Shown here piece after piece: positions 16,745 to 44,430 of a stretch of DNA of 64,000 nucleotides; positions within the stretch are counted from its first letter, which is position 1; each line of letters opens with the position of its first letter. The translations under genes were made by a program, and so were the position numbers. The notes under the pieces were generated by a model. That model ran no database searches. It was not told where the DNA came from and saw nothing but the letters and a program-made list of their open reading frames with translations. This DNA is from a phage, in sequence record NC_135729.1. One strand, 5' to 3'.

Positions 16745-16821
16745 TGGTCTCCACGGAGTGATTCGAACACTCGACCTCCTGATCCCAAATCAGGCGCTCT
16801 ACCAAGCTGAGCTACGCGGAG
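16745..16821 (-). tRNA. tRNA-Pro (anticodon TGG)
   Basis: Hand-folded cloverleaf: C1-G72 acceptor, D-arm GCTC/GAGC, anticodon loop TTTGGGA, T-loop TTCGAAT, encoded CCA. Confidence 0.8.
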
Positions 16822-16832
16822 TATCTACTATT

Positions 16833-16907
16833 TGGTGGCCCTGGGTGGAATTGAACCACCGTCTGGCGATTATGAGTCGCTTGCTTGAACCTTCCAGCTA
16901 CAGGGCC
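16833..16907 (-). tRNA. tRNA-Met (anticodon CAT; initiator, elongator or Ile2 not resolved)
   Basis: Hand-folded cloverleaf, anticodon loop CTCATAA, T-arm GGTGG/CCACC, encoded CCA. Confidence 0.7.
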
Positions 16908-16908
16908 A

Positions 16909-16983
16909 TGGTGCTGATGGCAGGACTTGAACCCGCAACCTATTGATTACAAATCAATTGCACTACCAATTGTGCTACATCAG
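16909..16983 (-). tRNA. tRNA-Thr (anticodon TGT)
   Basis: Hand-folded cloverleaf, D-arm GCAC/GTGC, anticodon loop TTTGTAA, T-loop TTCAAGT, encoded CCA. Confidence 0.8.
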
Positions 16984-16988
16984 CAAAA

Positions 16989-17087
16989 AGGTGCTAGGCG
17001 GTGGAATCGAACCACCTATGTATTCAACGACTACCTCGTCTATTTTCAGGATTAAAAATCCTCGCCCTTGCCAAAGGGCTTACCTAG
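16989..17087 (-). tRNA. aberrant tRNA-like element (about 97 nt; anticodon unresolved)
   Basis: Canonical acceptor stem, D-arm (GCCC/GGGC) and T-arm (GGTGG-TTCGATT-CCACC), but about 30 nt extra between anticodon-like hairpin and T-arm. Confidence 0.35.
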
Positions 17088-17185
17088 CTCAATATGTTGA
17101 CCATGTTGCTAGTCGGCGATGACGACTGTAACATTTGATAATCCGGTTCTGCTTCCGGCTTTCGCTTAATTGCAAGGTCAACAAT

Positions 17186-17276
17186 GTGGCGGAGAGTAAT
17201 GGAATCGAACCATCATCGAGTCATCCTCAACGGGACGGTTTTCAAGACCGCTTGAGCACCATTGCTCCCTACCCTC
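17186..17276 (-). tRNA. tRNA-Ser (anticodon TGA), type II
   Basis: Acceptor GGAGGGT, anticodon loop CTTGAAA, long variable arm, T-loop TTCGATT, encoded CCA. Confidence 0.7.
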
Positions 17277-17392
17277 CTTTATAAATTATACTGATAATGA
17301 CACTGATTTTCGAGCAGTTAGTGACTAGTATAAACGACGATAAATATCAATGCCATTATCTGTATTATTTATGCATCTAAAAAATATAAATT

Positions 17393-17479
17393 TGGTGGGG
17401 AGTGGTGGAGTCGAACCACCCGAGTCGCAATGACAATAGATTTACAGTCTACACCGCTACCTCTACGGGATAACTCCCC
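17393..17479 (-). tRNA. tRNA-Tyr (anticodon GTA), type II
   Basis: Anticodon loop CTGTAAA; variable arm TGTCATTGCGACTCG closely resembles E. coli tRNA-Tyr; T-arm GGTGG/CCACC; CCA encoded. Confidence 0.75.
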
Positions 17480-17483
17480 AATT

Positions 17484-17558
17484 TGGCACCCCGTACTGGA
17501 CTCGAACCAGTGTCAACGGCTTAGAAGGCCGCTGCTTTATCCACTAAGCTAACAGGGC
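17484..17558 (-). tRNA. tRNA-Arg (anticodon TCT)
   Basis: D-arm GCTT/AAGC, anticodon loop CTTCTAA, T-loop TTCGAGT, encoded CCA. Confidence 0.8.
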
Positions 17559-39099: not shown

Positions 39100-40188
39100 A
39101 TGGCTGTATTTAATGCTGAGAACACCGCTCATAAAACTGGTGACTATCCGCTGTTTCTGGGACAGCAAATGGGTATGTACGACTCTATCAACAAAAAATA
39201 TCCACAACTGTTTGAACTATACAAAAAACAAAAAGAACAAGACTGGGCAGAGGATGAAGTGGATTTGTCGCAATCTATTTCAGATTTTGTAACATGCTCA
39301 AAGTCAACTTATGACGTGATGGTGCAGACCTTGATGTGGCAATGGGAGGCTGATAGCGTTGCGGCAAGATCTATCATTTGTCTGTTTTCACCATTTATCA
39401 CCAATAGTGAGCTTTTCACTCTATTGATGAAACAGTCAGAGATTGAAGTTCTTCACGCACTAACTTACTCAGAGATTGTTAGACAATGCCTCCCCAATGC
39501 CCGTGAGATTATAGAAGAGATTCAGGAAAACCAAAACGTTCTGAGCAGATCCGGCGTTATTGTCAAATATATGCAAGAGCTTGAGGTTATTGGTGCAAAA
39601 TACCGACTGGATCCTTCTAGTGTTGAAGAAGATGTTGTGCGGAAATGCATTCTTAGAGCGCTTTTTGCACTTTTAGCTCTGGAGAGTATTGAGTTTATTG
39701 CAAGTTTTGCATGCACTTTCGCAGTAGCTGAACAGGGTATCTTTGTTCAGGTGGCGCAGCTTGTTCAAAAAATCATGCTTGACGAAATGCTACATTCGAA
39801 AGGTGATTTTGCCATCATTGATATCCTGCTTAATGATCCCGCATGGGAGAAAAGCTTCCTTGAGATAAAAGGGGAGTTAAAAGAGATTCTTGATGAAGTA
39901 CGAACCAAAGAGTACGGTTGGAGTGACTATATTTTCAGCGAAGGAAGAGCGATTATAGGTCTTAACTCACCGTTGCTTAAAGAATGGGTTGACTATAACT
40001 GCTCACCGATTTATGATTACTACGACATCGACAAAGACTTTGTGCCGCCAACAAAGGACCCTCTACCGTTTATGCAGGTGTGGATGAAACCTTCATTGCA
40101 ACAGACGGCTAACCAGGAAATGTCGAACACTGACTACCGAGTCAACACAACTGTTAACGACGCTGAAGAAGAAATTTGGGAGTTTTAA
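39100..40188 (+). CDS. nrdB: ribonucleotide reductase class Ia small subunit
   Basis: 362-aa ORF directly after nrdA; size and helical composition consistent with the small subunit. Confidence 0.75.
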   Translation: MAVFNAENTAHKTGDYPLFLGQQMGMYDSINKKYPQLFELYKKQKEQDWAEDEVDLSQSISDFVTCSKSTYDVMVQTLMWQWEADSVAARSIICLFSPFITNSELFTLLMKQSEIEVLHALTYSEIVRQCLPNAREIIEEIQENQNVLSRSGVIVKYMQELEVIGAKYRLDPSSVEEDVVRKCILRALFALLALESIEFIASFACTFAVAEQGIFVQVAQLVQKIMLDEMLHSKGDFAIIDILLNDPAWEKSFLEIKGELKEILDEVRTKEYGWSDYIFSEGRAIIGLNSPLLKEWVDYNCSPIYDYYDIDKDFVPPTKDPLPFMQVWMKPSLQQTANQEMSNTDYRVNTTVNDAEEEIWEF

Positions 40189-40191
40189 TAC

Positions 40192-40470
40192 ATGAGCTGT
40201 GAAAAATCTTTTTTCTTTATTATTTACGGTAAAGATAACTGCCCACATTGTGTAAGAGCAAAAGAATTTGCAGTCAGTAAAGGTCTGCCTTTTGTATATA
40301 AGACACTTGGAGAGGGATACACAAAAGAAGAGCTTATTGAGAAGTGTAGTCCAATCGTCCCAAGAACGTTACCGCAGATCTTCTTAGAAAGCGATCTTGA
40401 TAGTGTCCATGTAGGTGGTGCCGACGATTTCATCTCTTTTGTTAAGAATGATTTTGGAGAGAAAAAGTGA
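40192..40470 (+). CDS. glutaredoxin/thioredoxin-like protein
   Basis: CPHC redox motif near N-terminus, 92 aa, between nrdB and nrdD. Confidence 0.6.
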   Translation: MSCEKSFFFIIYGKDNCPHCVRAKEFAVSKGLPFVYKTLGEGYTKEELIEKCSPIVPRTLPQIFLESDLDSVHVGGADDFISFVKNDFGEKK

Positions 40471-42590
40471 AAGTTGTAAAACGGGACGGCAGAGAAGAGG
40501 TCTATAACGGAATTAAGGTGATCAAGGCGGCAGAGTCCGCCTTACTTGAGTCTGGACATACTGAAGAAGAAGCTTACCGGATCTCCTGTGCGGTTAATGA
40601 AGTTGTTGCTAACAATCTACCAACCGATCAGTGCACGATCTCTGTAAAAAATATCCATATCCTTGTTGAAGATGCTCTTATGGATATGGGTTTAAAATGT
40701 GCAGCCAGAGAATACATCCAGTATAGGCAGACAAGAGATAATAACAGAGAGGCAGGTGGAAAACTGCTTGCAGATATTAGTGGCTTCTTGGATCGCACTT
40801 GTGATGAATTTACAAAAGAAAACGCAAATAAGCCTACCAATCATGTACACACTCATCGTGACCTGCTTGCAGGCATCCTTAGCAAACACCTTGCATCAAC
40901 ACAGATCCTGCCAGACCGTGTCTCAGAAGAGCACAATAAAGGCTTCATCCATGTGCATGATCTTGACTACTTGATCAGTCCGTTAACAAACTGTTGTTTG
41001 GTAAATTATCCAGATATGTTGGAAAACGGATTCAACATTGGCAACGCCCATGTCAGTAAGCCGAAGTCAATAGGGGTTGCAACAACAATCCTTAGCCAAA
41101 TCTCTAGTGCAGTAGCTAGTGCTCAATATGGAGGTCAGACTATGAGCCATATTGATCATTATCTGGCACAGTATGCTGAGGCGACCTATGAGAAGAATCT
41201 TAAATTTTGCCAGGAACACTGGTTGCCAGATGCTGAGACTGTTGCAATGCAAATGACAGATAAAGACGTATTTGACAGCATGCAGACTTTGCTCTATCAA
41301 ATCAATACGTTAACCTCTGTCAACGGGCAAACTCCATTCATCACATTAAGTTTAGGACTGGATACCTCGGTCTTTGGTAGAATGATTACCAAAAACTACT
41401 TGAAAGTCCACAAAATGGGTCTTGGTGAAGAACGTATCACACCTGTGTTCCCTAAAGTGCTGTTCTTCCTAGAAGAGGGTGTCAACATGAGCCCTGGAGA
41501 TCCCAACTATGATTTGAAACGATTAGCTCTGGAATGCTCTGCAGAGCGGATTTATCCTGACTTTGTTTCTGTTCCACTAAATCGTAAAGTGACAGGCTCG
41601 ACAGATGGCAAAGTAACGAGCATGGGTTGCCGGAGTTTTCTTAGCAAATACAATGACTTGGAAACAGGCGAGGAGAAATACCTTGGTAGATTTAACTTAG
41701 GCGTTGTTAGCCTTAACCTGCCAATGATTGCGGCAAAAGCTAAAACGGAAGGTGTTGATTTCTTTGCAGTTCTTGACGAATACCTGGATCTTGCATACGA
41801 GGCTCACCTTGTAAGGGTTAACCGTCTAAAAGGAACAAAGGCAGGGCAGAACCCTATCATGTGGTGTGAAGGCGCTCTTGCTCGCCTGGATCCTGAAGAG
41901 AGTATTGATAAACTCTTCTATGACGGGTACGCTTCCATCAGTATTGGGTATATTGGTGTGTATGAAACCTGTCAGATTTTGGGCAGAGAGGGTGACAAGG
42001 CTTTAGCTCTTGGAATCCTTCAGCACATGAAAGATGCTTGTGAGAGATATAAGAAGGAAAGTGGACTAGCATTTAGCTTGTACGGCACCCCTTCTGAGAG
42101 TTTATGCTATAAAGCTGCAACCTGTCTGGATCGTGAATATCCAGAAGTGTTGAAGCACGAGCATGAATACCTCACCAACAGTTTCCATCAGCCAGTATGG
42201 ATCAATAGTTCACCTTTTGATAAGTGGAAGTATGAAGAAGGTTTTGCTATGATCTCTTCTGGTGGCAACATTGGATATATAGAGACACCTAACCTGAAAA
42301 ACAACCTGGATGCTTTAGAGGCTCTTGTTGACTTCGGGTATAAACACATTATGTATTTTGGTATTAACCAACCTGTGGATAAATGTCTCAAGTGTGGTTT
42401 CTCTGGTGAGTTCAGTGCAACAGCTAAAGGCTTTGTATGCCCAGAGTGTGGAAACCATGAGGAGGGAACGATCAGTGTAATTAGACGTGTGTCTGGATAC
42501 CTTTCCAGTCCTAACTCCCGTCCTTACAATAAAGGTAAGCAAGCGGAAGTTATAGAACGGGTTAAGCACTATGGAAGTTGTAGTTGCTGA
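40467..42590 (+). CDS. nrdD: anaerobic ribonucleoside-triphosphate reductase
   Basis: N-terminal ATP-cone, C-terminal Cys cluster and glycyl-radical motif RVSGYL. Confidence 0.85.
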   Translation: MKVVKRDGREEVYNGIKVIKAAESALLESGHTEEEAYRISCAVNEVVANNLPTDQCTISVKNIHILVEDALMDMGLKCAAREYIQYRQTRDNNREAGGKLLADISGFLDRTCDEFTKENANKPTNHVHTHRDLLAGILSKHLASTQILPDRVSEEHNKGFIHVHDLDYLISPLTNCCLVNYPDMLENGFNIGNAHVSKPKSIGVATTILSQISSAVASAQYGGQTMSHIDHYLAQYAEATYEKNLKFCQEHWLPDAETVAMQMTDKDVFDSMQTLLYQINTLTSVNGQTPFITLSLGLDTSVFGRMITKNYLKVHKMGLGEERITPVFPKVLFFLEEGVNMSPGDPNYDLKRLALECSAERIYPDFVSVPLNRKVTGSTDGKVTSMGCRSFLSKYNDLETGEEKYLGRFNLGVVSLNLPMIAAKAKTEGVDFFAVLDEYLDLAYEAHLVRVNRLKGTKAGQNPIMWCEGALARLDPEESIDKLFYDGYASISIGYIGVYETCQILGREGDKALALGILQHMKDACERYKKESGLAFSLYGTPSESLCYKAATCLDREYPEVLKHEHEYLTNSFHQPVWINSSPFDKWKYEEGFAMISSGGNIGYIETPNLKNNLDALEALVDFGYKHIMYFGINQPVDKCLKCGFSGEFSATAKGFVCPECGNHEEGTISVIRRVSGYLSSPNSRPYNKGKQAEVIERVKHYGSCSC

Positions 42591-42656
42591 TACTTGACAG
42601 AAGCCACAAGGATGTGGCATACTTGGCTAATCTATGAGAACCAAGAGGGATCAAAG

Positions 42657-43613
42657 ATGCCTAGAGGAAAACAACTTACAACTGAAGAATTTACAAAAAG
42701 AGCTAGAGAAGTACATGGCGATAAATATGACTATTCAAAAACCGTATATAAAACTGCTAAAAGTAAGGTTGTAATTGTATGCCCTGTTCATGGTGAGTTT
42801 ACGCAGATCGCTGGACATCATATCCTTGACGGTAGTGGGTGTCCTAAGTGTGGTAGAGTGCCAGTAGGCAATAAGCTTAGAAACGATTCTAGTGATATTA
42901 TCAAAAAATTTGTAAAAATCCACGGTGACACCTATGATTATTCTAAGGTTGAATATGTTAACTATAAAACTCCTGTAAAAATTGTATGCCCTGAGCACGG
43001 AGTGTTCTTGCAATCCCCATCTAACCATTTGAAAGGCCAAGGGTGCCCTGAGTGTAGTAAACTCATTAGCGCAGCAAAAAGGAATAAAGGCCCTGAATTC
43101 ATAGAAAGAGCCAAAGAAATCCATGGCGATAAATATGACTACTCTTTTGTAGATTATATGACTTGCGAAGATAAGGTAGAGATAATCTGCAACACTTGTG
43201 GAAATCACTTCACCCAGACACCTTCTTGCCACCTGTCTGGTCGTGGATGCCCTAAATGTGCCAAAAACGGTTTCTTATCTCACAACTATGGGAAGCTTTA
43301 CCTCATGGTTGATAACTTAGAAGCGCCAACACTTATGAAGATCGGTGTGAGCGTCAATGTAGAAGCGAGGAAGGGAAGGATATTAAGAGCATCCAAGAAG
43401 GCTGGTGCAGGTATTTATGATCTCCACATAGTAAAAACATGGGGCGGATCGACTGAAAACATGCTGAGTGTAGAAAAATCTGTGCATGAAGCCTTCAATA
43501 AGTATAAAATAAACTTCTCTAAAGTATTTAGTGGAAGCACTGAATTCTTTCACTACAGACCTGAAGTGTTTAGCATAGTGGAAGCAGTATACAAAGAGAT
43601 CTGTGGTAAATGA
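42657..43613 (+). CDS. homing-endonuclease-like protein (zinc-binding repeats plus GIY-YIG-like T5orf172-type domain)
   Basis: Four repeats of KYDYSK...CP.HG...GCPKCG then C-terminal GKLYLMVD...KIGVS...GSTEFFH; start at Met MPRGKQL (AAGAGGGA SD). Confidence 0.5.
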   Translation: MPRGKQLTTEEFTKRAREVHGDKYDYSKTVYKTAKSKVVIVCPVHGEFTQIAGHHILDGSGCPKCGRVPVGNKLRNDSSDIIKKFVKIHGDTYDYSKVEYVNYKTPVKIVCPEHGVFLQSPSNHLKGQGCPECSKLISAAKRNKGPEFIERAKEIHGDKYDYSFVDYMTCEDKVEIICNTCGNHFTQTPSCHLSGRGCPKCAKNGFLSHNYGKLYLMVDNLEAPTLMKIGVSVNVEARKGRILRASKKAGAGIYDLHIVKTWGGSTENMLSVEKSVHEAFNKYKINFSKVFSGSTEFFHYRPEVFSIVEAVYKEICGK

Positions 43614-43665
43614 TCGTAGAAAGATACACATGTCTTAAATATGCTATTAACTAAGGAGGTGCAGT

Positions 43666-43782
43666 ATGTCATCGGGTATCTATAAAATCTGCAAGTGCGG
43701 TTGTCATTGTAATCTTCGTTGGTGCAAGGCACTGGACGATTTTATTTGGCATTGCCCTAAATGTGATGCGGAGTATCTATGA
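43666..43782 (+). CDS. small zinc-ribbon protein (38 aa, below ORF-track cutoff)
   Basis: AAGGAGGTG SD 6 nt before ATG; MSSGIYKICKCGCHCNLRWCKALDDFIWHCPKCDAEYL; stop overlaps nrdG start. Confidence 0.35.
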   Translation: MSSGIYKICKCGCHCNLRWCKALDDFIWHCPKCDAEYL

Positions 43783-44252
43783 ATATTGCCGGATACACAG
43801 AAATATCTTACACCGAAGGGCCAGGTATTAGAACTGCCTTATGGGTATCTGGGTGCCCACACGCTTGCCCTGGTTGCTTTAATCAGGCATTTTGGTCAAA
43901 AGATAAGGGGAGAGAGTTTACTGAAGAAGACTTGCAAAAAATCTTGTCAGATTTAGATAACCCGTCTGTGTGCGGTATCTCTCTGCTGGGTGGAGAACCC
44001 TTAGCATACTATAATGAGCCAGATATTATTAGCCTGATGGAGAAAATTAAGGAAAAATTTGGTGACAAGAAAACTATTCTTGTATATACTGGGTTCACAT
44101 TTGACCATATCTCTAGTGATGTTCTTAAACTGGCTGATATCATCATTGACGGTAAGTATGTAAAAGATTTACCAACCAAGAAACCGTTCCGAGGTAGCGA
44201 TAACCAAAGAATGTTTAAAAAAGTAGCAGGCGGTTGGGTCCAGGTAGACTAG
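43779..44252 (+). CDS. nrdG: anaerobic RNR activating enzyme (radical SAM)
   Basis: CPHACPGC radical-SAM cysteine motif in GPGIRTALWVSGCPHACPGCFN. Confidence 0.8.
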   Translation: MNIAGYTEISYTEGPGIRTALWVSGCPHACPGCFNQAFWSKDKGREFTEEDLQKILSDLDNPSVCGISLLGGEPLAYYNEPDIISLMEKIKEKFGDKKTILVYTGFTFDHISSDVLKLADIIIDGKYVKDLPTKKPFRGSDNQRMFKKVAGGWVQVD

Positions 44253-44255
44253 TTG

Positions 44256-44285
44256 TTGACAAAGCTTTGTTTAGATAGGTATAAT
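44256..44285 (+). promoter_or_regulatory. sigma70-like consensus promoter
   Basis: TTGACA, 18-nt spacer, TATAAT. Confidence 0.6.
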
Positions 44286-44316
44286 TATCGTAAAATGAAA
44301 GCAGAGGAGGTGCCAA

Positions 44317-44430
44317 ATGGCTAAAAAAGCCTTGAAGAAGGCGTACAAGAAAGAGATTGCGCTTGAGCTTAAGAAAAAACACAAGCGTGAAAAGAAACAT
44401 CATGAGGATGAAGAGGGGGTGCAACAGTGA
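44317..44430 (+). CDS. small lysine-rich protein (37 aa, below ORF-track cutoff)
   Basis: GAGGAGGTG SD; MAKKALKKAYKKEIALELKKKHKREKKHHEDEEGVQQ; stop overlaps next start. Confidence 0.4.
   Translation: MAKKALKKAYKKEIALELKKKHKREKKHHEDEEGVQQ

Follow-up and report, generated by a model that had tools for sequence, protein, structure and literature searches.

A probable homing endonuclease gene of the T5orf172 type at a polymorphic site between nrdD and nrdG of an rV5-like phage

The stretch analysed here, hereafter called the window, comprises 64,000 nucleotides (nt) of phage DNA (sequence record NC_135729.1). Between nrdD and nrdG, the genes of an anaerobic ribonucleotide reductase and its activase, it carries a gene for a protein of 318 amino acids (aa) with three tandem zinc modules and a C-terminal nuclease domain. 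This gene is probably a free-standing homing endonuclease gene of the T5orf172 type, since patchy occupancy of one exact site together with diverged alleles is the signature of such a gene. An earlier model-made reading of the letters alone (the sequence-only reading) had proposed a homing-endonuclease-like gene inserted at this place, and the proposal was borne out by the absence of the gene from most related records, precise boundaries, diverged alleles at the same site and a nuclease fold of the GIY-YIG type. The features that matter most for this finding are the following.

42622-43652, + strand: inserted cassette with a 5' leader, the endonuclease gene and a conserved 3' untranslated tail, delimited by alignment to the empty site of phage Murica
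42657-43613, + strand: endonuclease coding sequence, 318 aa, with the ribosome-binding site AAGAGGG at 42643-42649
42678-42890, 42891-43091 and 43092-43274, + strand: three tandem zinc modules of the DUF723/DUF4379/CapR type, placed by Pfam matches, motif positions, a direct repeat (D1) and an alignment of the modules
43275-43610, + strand: T5orf172/MUG113 nuclease domain of the GIY-YIG superfamily, the C-terminal 112 residues (207-318)

The origin of the window was judged from a 4.2-kb stretch reaching from the glutaredoxin gene to past nrdG. It was matched by 121 phage records with 90-98% identity, nearly all of them Vequintavirus Escherichia phages, and the window is assigned to a Vequintavirus, an rV5-like Escherichia coli myovirus; the T4-like phage of the sequence-only reading had to give way to this lineage. 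In the relative Murica, nrdD and a cysteine-rich open reading frame (ORF) of 38 aa that precedes nrdG lie only about 60 nt apart. The match between the window and Murica ended at 42621 and resumed at approximately 43651-43654, just 5' of the ribosome-binding site of the 38-aa ORF, and a cassette of approximately 1031 bp stands in place of an empty-site spacer of approximately 22 bp (TTATTGACACACAGTGAGC...). This spacer is unusually variable among the phages with an empty site. With the Murica junction as query, occupancy was then surveyed in 119 related phage records. The junction was uninterrupted in 92 of them (77%), and the comparison with relatives whose nrdD and nrdG are adjacent, which the sequence-only reading had suggested as a check, came out in favour of an insertion. 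The remaining 27 records (23%) were interrupted, all of them breaking at query positions 69 and 92. Conservation of the gene at this position in all relatives and the lack of a nuclease fold had been named as speaking against a homing endonuclease; the gene is not conserved in this way, and a nuclease fold is present.

Eight occupied sites were examined, those of phages nom, JEP1, I29, typing phage 14, WalterGehring, Mangalyan, ECML-10 and A142. In all eight, the cassette had identical boundaries on both sides, with related sequences in the 5' leader and the 3' tail. The encoded proteins range from 310 to 386 aa and contain three to five zinc modules, of two kinds and in varying order, the second kind (PHEKWVE...CRCK.C.H.W...GCP.C) being absent from the window allele. 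The other alleles thus resemble that of the window in insertion point, leader, tail and a homologous nuclease domain, but differ from it in number, order and type of zinc modules and in the sequence of the nuclease domain, which is 54-74% identical to that of the window, as against more than 90% DNA identity for the flanking genes. The nearest phage allele in GenBank reached 77% DNA identity and at most 74% in the protein sequence of the nuclease domain. Several of these genes already carry fitting labels in GenBank: 'putative homing endonuclease' in WalterGehring (bas51_0186), 'GIY-YIG nuclease family protein' in SophiaRose and 'phage T5, ORF172 domain containing protein' in I29 (I29_104). 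The window allele is new to GenBank phages in sequence, not in kind.

The distribution of the cassette is at odds with the relatedness of the flanks. The closest relatives by flank, FFH2 (98.1% identity) and JES2013 (97.6%), have an empty site, and the occupied relatives have flanks that are 91-94% identical, with alleles that reach only about 77% DNA identity. At the same site in a Logan contig, a protein with 99% identity (P0001) was found; nrdD is split in this contig, which represents a different background. Both this discordance and the presence/absence polymorphism at one precise site among close genomes are marks by which homing endonuclease genes are recognised. Over the first 50-100 nt of the right flank, the window showed 0-1 mismatch per 50 nt to the occupied sites of ECML-10, JEP1 and the Logan contig and 4-8 to empty sites, a pattern that suggests co-conversion.

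With regard to the nuclease domain, residues 215-304 matched the Pfam models PF10544 T5orf172 (26.6 bits, cut-off 20) and PF13455 MUG113 (28.6 bits, cut-off 22.3), so that the C-terminal T5orf172-type domain named in the sequence-only reading holds; its suggested profile search succeeded for this family and not for the classical GIY-YIG model. The whole protein matched phrog_681 'endonuclease' at 1e-67, and a search of the NCBIfam library revealed no membership for it. In an AlphaFold model built on a nine-sequence alignment, residues 205-318 reached a mean predicted local distance difference test (pLDDT) score of 91.8; a search with the nuclease domain alone had returned only two proteins, and the alignment therefore stayed at nine sequences. 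The modelled domain has an alpha/beta fold of the GIY-YIG type. In a fold comparison, Slx1 came first, followed by PD-T4-3, Eco29kI, T4 endonuclease II and the N-terminal domain of UvrC; Foldseek likewise ranked Slx1 at the top, but with an E-value of only 0.15. Seven residues are invariant in the nine homologues, namely Y215 (at the 'GIY' position), K228, G230 (at the 'YIG' position), E273, G293, E296 and F298, and R238 is conserved in eight of the nine aligned sequences. T5orf172 has been placed in the GIY-YIG superfamily (PMC8263062). Following the alignment in the same work, the motif residues including R238 and E296 would be equivalent to R27 and E75 of I-TevI and to E180 of Odn, and E296 would be the catalytic glutamate, as in I-TevI and Odn.

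As a separate observation, two E. coli K-12 phage records of 53-55 kb, mEp013 (PP180002.1) and mEp021 (MH706966.1), each contain two places that match the nuclease domain with 59% identity, and this nuclease subfamily is therefore not confined to rV5-like phages.

The N-terminal two thirds of the protein consist of zinc modules spaced by 207 and 201 nt, with a mutual identity of 45-50%. Three modules were found where the sequence-only reading had counted four. Each carries the motif HGDxYDYS...C-x-x-H/C-G...G-C-P-x-C and four metal ligands (C42/H45/C62/C65; C111/H114/C130/C133; C178/C181/C198/C201), which follow the pattern CxxH...CxxC in two modules and CxxC...CxxC in one. The Pfam scores exceeded the cut-offs for DUF723 (39.7 vs 20.9 bits) and for DUF4379 (37.8 vs 24.5 bits), the latter described by Pfam as a 'probable treble clef zinc finger', and fell just short for the CapR homology domain (23.3 vs 24.2 bits). 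By analogy with the endonucleases that combine CapR and T5orf172 domains (PMC10448857), the modules are presumed to form a DNA-binding array.

From these data we infer the following course of events. The three zinc modules, of a DUF723/CapR-like treble-clef type, would bind DNA, and the T5orf172 domain, as a branch of the GIY-YIG nuclease superfamily, would cut it. In a cell infected both by this phage and by an rV5-like phage that lacks the gene, the enzyme would cleave the genome of the latter in or close to the nrdD-nrdG spacer. Repair of the break by recombination, with the gene-bearing genome as template, would then transfer the cassette and part of its flank.

The classical GIY-YIG homing endonucleases of phage T4, I-TevI and SegA-G, have an N-terminal nuclease domain and bind DNA by a helix-turn-helix or NUMOD module. 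In T4-like phages, mobE and I-TevIII are nrd-associated endonuclease genes. The window gene resembles these elements in its modular 'beads on a string' build and in the preference for nucleotide-metabolism genes. However, it does not have the classical I-TevI/Seg architecture, with N-terminal PF01541 and C-terminal DNA binding: its nuclease domain is C-terminal and lacks a PF01541 match, DNA would be bound by an array of zinc fingers, and the phage that carries the gene is rV5-like.

A closer counterpart was described by Barth et al. (2023; PMC10448857), who reported that 87% of the T5orf172 homing endonuclease genes carry CapR, DUF723 or DUF4379 zinc fingers, often repeated, with recombination between repeats and shuffling of modules, and that ribonucleotide reductase genes occur in 33% of the gene neighbourhoods. 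This class is known from ICP1 and many other phages. The window protein and its alleles share with it the N-terminal zinc-finger repeats and C-terminal T5orf172 domain, the variation in repeat number, the shuffling and the ribonucleotide reductase neighbours; the difference lies in the host lineage, as neither Vequintavirus nor rV5 is mentioned in the text of that article. Odn (ICP1 Gp88), in turn, is a T5orf172 nuclease with a RepA_N DNA-binding domain, whose cleavage in vitro and in vivo is abolished by the exchange E180A (PMC8263062). It shares the nuclease domain family and the glutamate of the G-x-T-E-x-F motif with the window protein, but it has another DNA-binding domain and is a domesticated weapon against satellites and not a homing element. 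The window gene is therefore one more diverged allele of a described class, at a site with annotated homologues, and leaves the general picture unchanged. The Vequintavirus nrdD-nrdG junction, with 77% empty sites and at least eight alleles, does offer a natural series for studying how modular DNA-binding arrays set or shift the specificity of an endonuclease.

The surroundings of the endonuclease start are of interest for its expression. The ORF listing gave an intact frame at 42594-43613 if opened at a TTG directly after the nrdD stop. The likely start is the ATG at 42657, 7 nt after AAGAGGG, because all homologous alleles begin at this position; the resulting protein is one residue shorter than the 319 aa of the sequence-only reading. 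A read-through fusion of NrdD and the endonuclease was considered, as both ORFs are in frame with only the nrdD TGA between them (42588-42659), and was discarded; JEP1 has an in-frame TAG, and the shared frame is probably a coincidence of the window allele. Using tblastn, no paralogue of the endonuclease was found elsewhere in the window, and one extra match, an offset repeat alignment over the C-terminal zinc ribbon of NrdD, was not read as homology. The promoter scan added one feature.

42594-42623, + strand: predicted sigma-70-like promoter, TTGACA-18 nt-CATACT with an upstream TG, 10/12 matches in the promoter scan

This promoter-like element holds a hairpin (GCCACA-AGGA-TGTGGC, 42603-42618). 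It is kept in empty-site relatives (Murica, FFH2, rV5 and others), where it stands directly before the 38-aa ORF and nrdG, and the Gotham record annotates a predicted promoter at the same place. The start of the cassette falls within its -10 hexamer. Since the cassette adjoins an element that directly precedes these genes in empty-site phages, the endonuclease gene is probably co-transcribed with the 38-aa ORF and nrdG from this promoter-like element. The ribosome-binding site and start codon of the endonuclease gene lie within a predicted RNA structure (z = -2.7). Translation of T4 homing endonuclease genes is limited by RNA structure, and by analogy the predicted structure could conceivably limit that of the window gene as well.

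Immediately downstream of the cassette follows the small cysteine-rich gene.

43666-43782, + strand: native 38-aa ORF with seven cysteines, phrog_20137, outside the cassette

The sequence-only reading was right about a strong ribosome-binding site before this ORF and about its overlap with the nrdG start: AAGGAGGT lies at 43653-43660 with a spacer of 5 nt, and the TGA of the ORF overlaps the ATG of nrdG as ATGA, through which the two genes are translationally coupled. Its further claim that the small ORF is coupled to and inserted with the endonuclease gene did not survive, as the ORF belongs to a family of its own, has a homologue before the DNA ligase gene of a podovirus and was detected by tblastn in 121/121 Vequintavirus records, including every empty-site phage examined, such as Murica and FFH2, with the same ribosome-binding site and, in general, the same ATGA overlap. 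All seven cysteines are kept with codons varying between TGC and TGT, other changes are mostly synonymous, and only position 14 varies freely (H/R/S). This protein-level conservation with synonymous changes in the cysteine codons argues for a functional peptide, and judged by its distribution the ORF is a genuine resident phage gene, separate from the insert. For annotation this is of some value, because this conserved gene is overlooked in many records or given there as a terminator. Inside the ORF, at 43719-43735, there is indeed a terminator-like hairpin with a T-run, and the Murica record annotates a terminator instead of the ORF. The possibility of an attenuator or a leader peptide was discarded in view of the protein-level conservation; the podovirus homologue also lacks the T-run.

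This homologue (approximately 75-77% identity) occurs in ACG-C91, a Vectrevirus podovirus, and in a podovirus contig from Logan (L003 2995-3108; L011 2864-2974), with the same ATGAAYAT stop/start overlap and no endonuclease gene nearby. The slot before DNA ligase holds unrelated small ORFs in other Vectreviruses, for example a different 38-aa CxxC...CxxC peptide in K1E and a 57-aa protein without cysteines in phage B. To judge from these comparisons, the ORF moves between unrelated phage families and behaves as a mobile mini-gene. Extra small ORFs separate it from nrdG in rV5, HdK5, WalterGehring and Mangalyan, and the coupling to nrdG is therefore not obligatory.

The product contains, among others, the motifs C9xC11, C13xC15 and C30PxC33, has no Pfam or NCBIfam match and gave an unusable AlphaFold model (pLDDT only 56.8). 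With the 42-aa podovirus version as query, only three clusters were returned, and an exhaustive HMMER search yielded five matches, consisting of two true short homologues, one frameshifted copy and two spurious repeat proteins. The protein is most likely a small metal-binding protein, and the term 'zinc ribbon' is a guess.

The extra ORFs, of approximately 34 and 80 aa, do not occur in the window and constitute a second presence/absence polymorphism, located in the spacer between the 38-aa ORF and nrdG. They lie at 4607-4988 in L008 (WalterGehring), 3696-4068 in L009 (Mangalyan), 634-949 in L015 and 778-957 in L018, and the ORF of approximately 80 aa is mislabelled as 'minor capsid protein'.

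Several points weigh against a homing endonuclease. Cleavage and homing, by the window protein or by any allele at this site, are activities that we infer. The classical GIY-YIG model PF01541 gave no match at E-values up to 1, and neither single-protein nor profile searches gave a significant sequence match to a solved structure. E296 was assigned as catalytic from the published alignment and not from a residue-level superposition. The mosaicism of the flanks is complex across the whole region, so the co-conversion signal is no more than suggestive, and very different zinc arrays, with three to five modules of two kinds, are awkward at one site if the target is shared.

Alternatively, the gene might descend from a homing endonuclease and now serve the phage without driving its own spread, be it as a sequence-specific weapon against competing phages or satellites, like Odn of ICP1, or as a DNA-binding regulator of the promoter upstream, in the manner of I-TevI autorepression or the PLE CapR protein. 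Strong differences among the zinc arrays at one site resemble an arms race over targets, the cassette starts within the -10 of a promoter-like site from which the 38-aa ORF and nrdG would otherwise be transcribed, and precedents of both kinds exist (PMC8263062; PMC10448857). However, an occupancy of 23%, exact common boundaries and divergence among the alleles are in keeping with selfish mobility, the conserved nuclease motifs would be superfluous in a pure regulator, and the PADLOC library of defence systems gave no family membership, the best match having an E-value of 0.006 without a significant stretch. We regard such a domesticated role as unlikely. Homing endonuclease genes also commonly degenerate after fixation, and the high divergence of the alleles, the lack of annotation of the region in ECML-10 and the fragmented nrdD of several relatives could be seen as traces of a decaying, inactive remnant that is carried passively and does not cut. 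Against this stand the full-length ORF with all twelve zinc ligands and the conserved residues of the nuclease motifs intact, the confident model of the nuclease domain, the 99% identical copy in another genome background and an insertion still far from fixation, with the site empty in 77% of the relatives, which makes a mere remnant quite improbable. The position inside the nrd cluster and the many cysteines might finally point to a conserved partner of the anaerobic reductase, for instance a metal-handling or regulatory subunit with the 38-aa ORF as its coupled companion. This we consider hardly credible, as the comparative data already contradict it: 92 of 119 close relatives retain nrdD and nrdG but lack the gene, the 38-aa ORF occurs with or without it, and the C-terminal domain has the fold of a nuclease. 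A homing endonuclease of the T5orf172 type accordingly remains our preferred interpretation.

A more far-reaching interpretation, in which the nrdD-nrdG site is the scene of an allelic arms race and not of a single homing element, starts from the at least eight diverged alleles, the common cassette boundaries and the reshuffled arrays of three to five zinc modules. Each allele might then cut a different subset of the empty-site variants, or the rival alleles, and the site would be a marker-exclusion locus between co-infecting rV5-like phages. Independently of this, the 38-aa ORF, which moves between unrelated phages and overlaps by ATGA with the gene of an essential enzyme (nrdG or DNA ligase), may represent a novel type of small accessory protein that binds metal, or a selfish mini-gene. 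Taken jointly, these two suggestions may be true, and we rate them as a rather long shot. Of mild interest in any case are the strong reshuffling among alleles at a single site and the wandering small gene with its seven cysteines.

The neighbouring genes have the following order.

39100-40188: nrdB (local gene order)
40192-40470: glutaredoxin gene (local gene order)
40467-42590, + strand: nrdD, anaerobic ribonucleoside-triphosphate reductase, 707 aa, intact (PF13597 538 bits, Gly_radical, ATP-cone), left flank of the cassette
43779-44252, + strand: nrdG, radical-SAM activase of NrdD (Fer4_12 146 bits; phrog_626 1e-54), right flank

The nrd cluster attracts selfish elements of several different kinds. 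In JEP1 (L005 476-4158), nom (L004 476-2856), WalterGehring (L008), Mangalyan (L009) and one further locus (L012), HNH endonuclease genes divide nrdD into two or three parts, and the WalterGehring annotation gives it as a joined coding sequence; nrdD of the window is uninterrupted.

Elsewhere in the window, a cluster of six transfer RNA (tRNA) genes for Pro, Met, Thr, Ser, Tyr and Arg lies on the - strand at 16745-17558. ARAGORN also reported an odd tRNA-like element of 99 nt with a four-base anticodon at 16990-17088, and Rfam confirmed neither this element nor the Ser tRNA. Directly 3' of nrdG (44256-44430), a perfect consensus promoter of the sigma-70 type, TTGACA-18 nt-TATAAT, is followed by a lysine-rich ORF of 37 aa at 44317-44430, which is annotated as a hypothetical protein in relatives.

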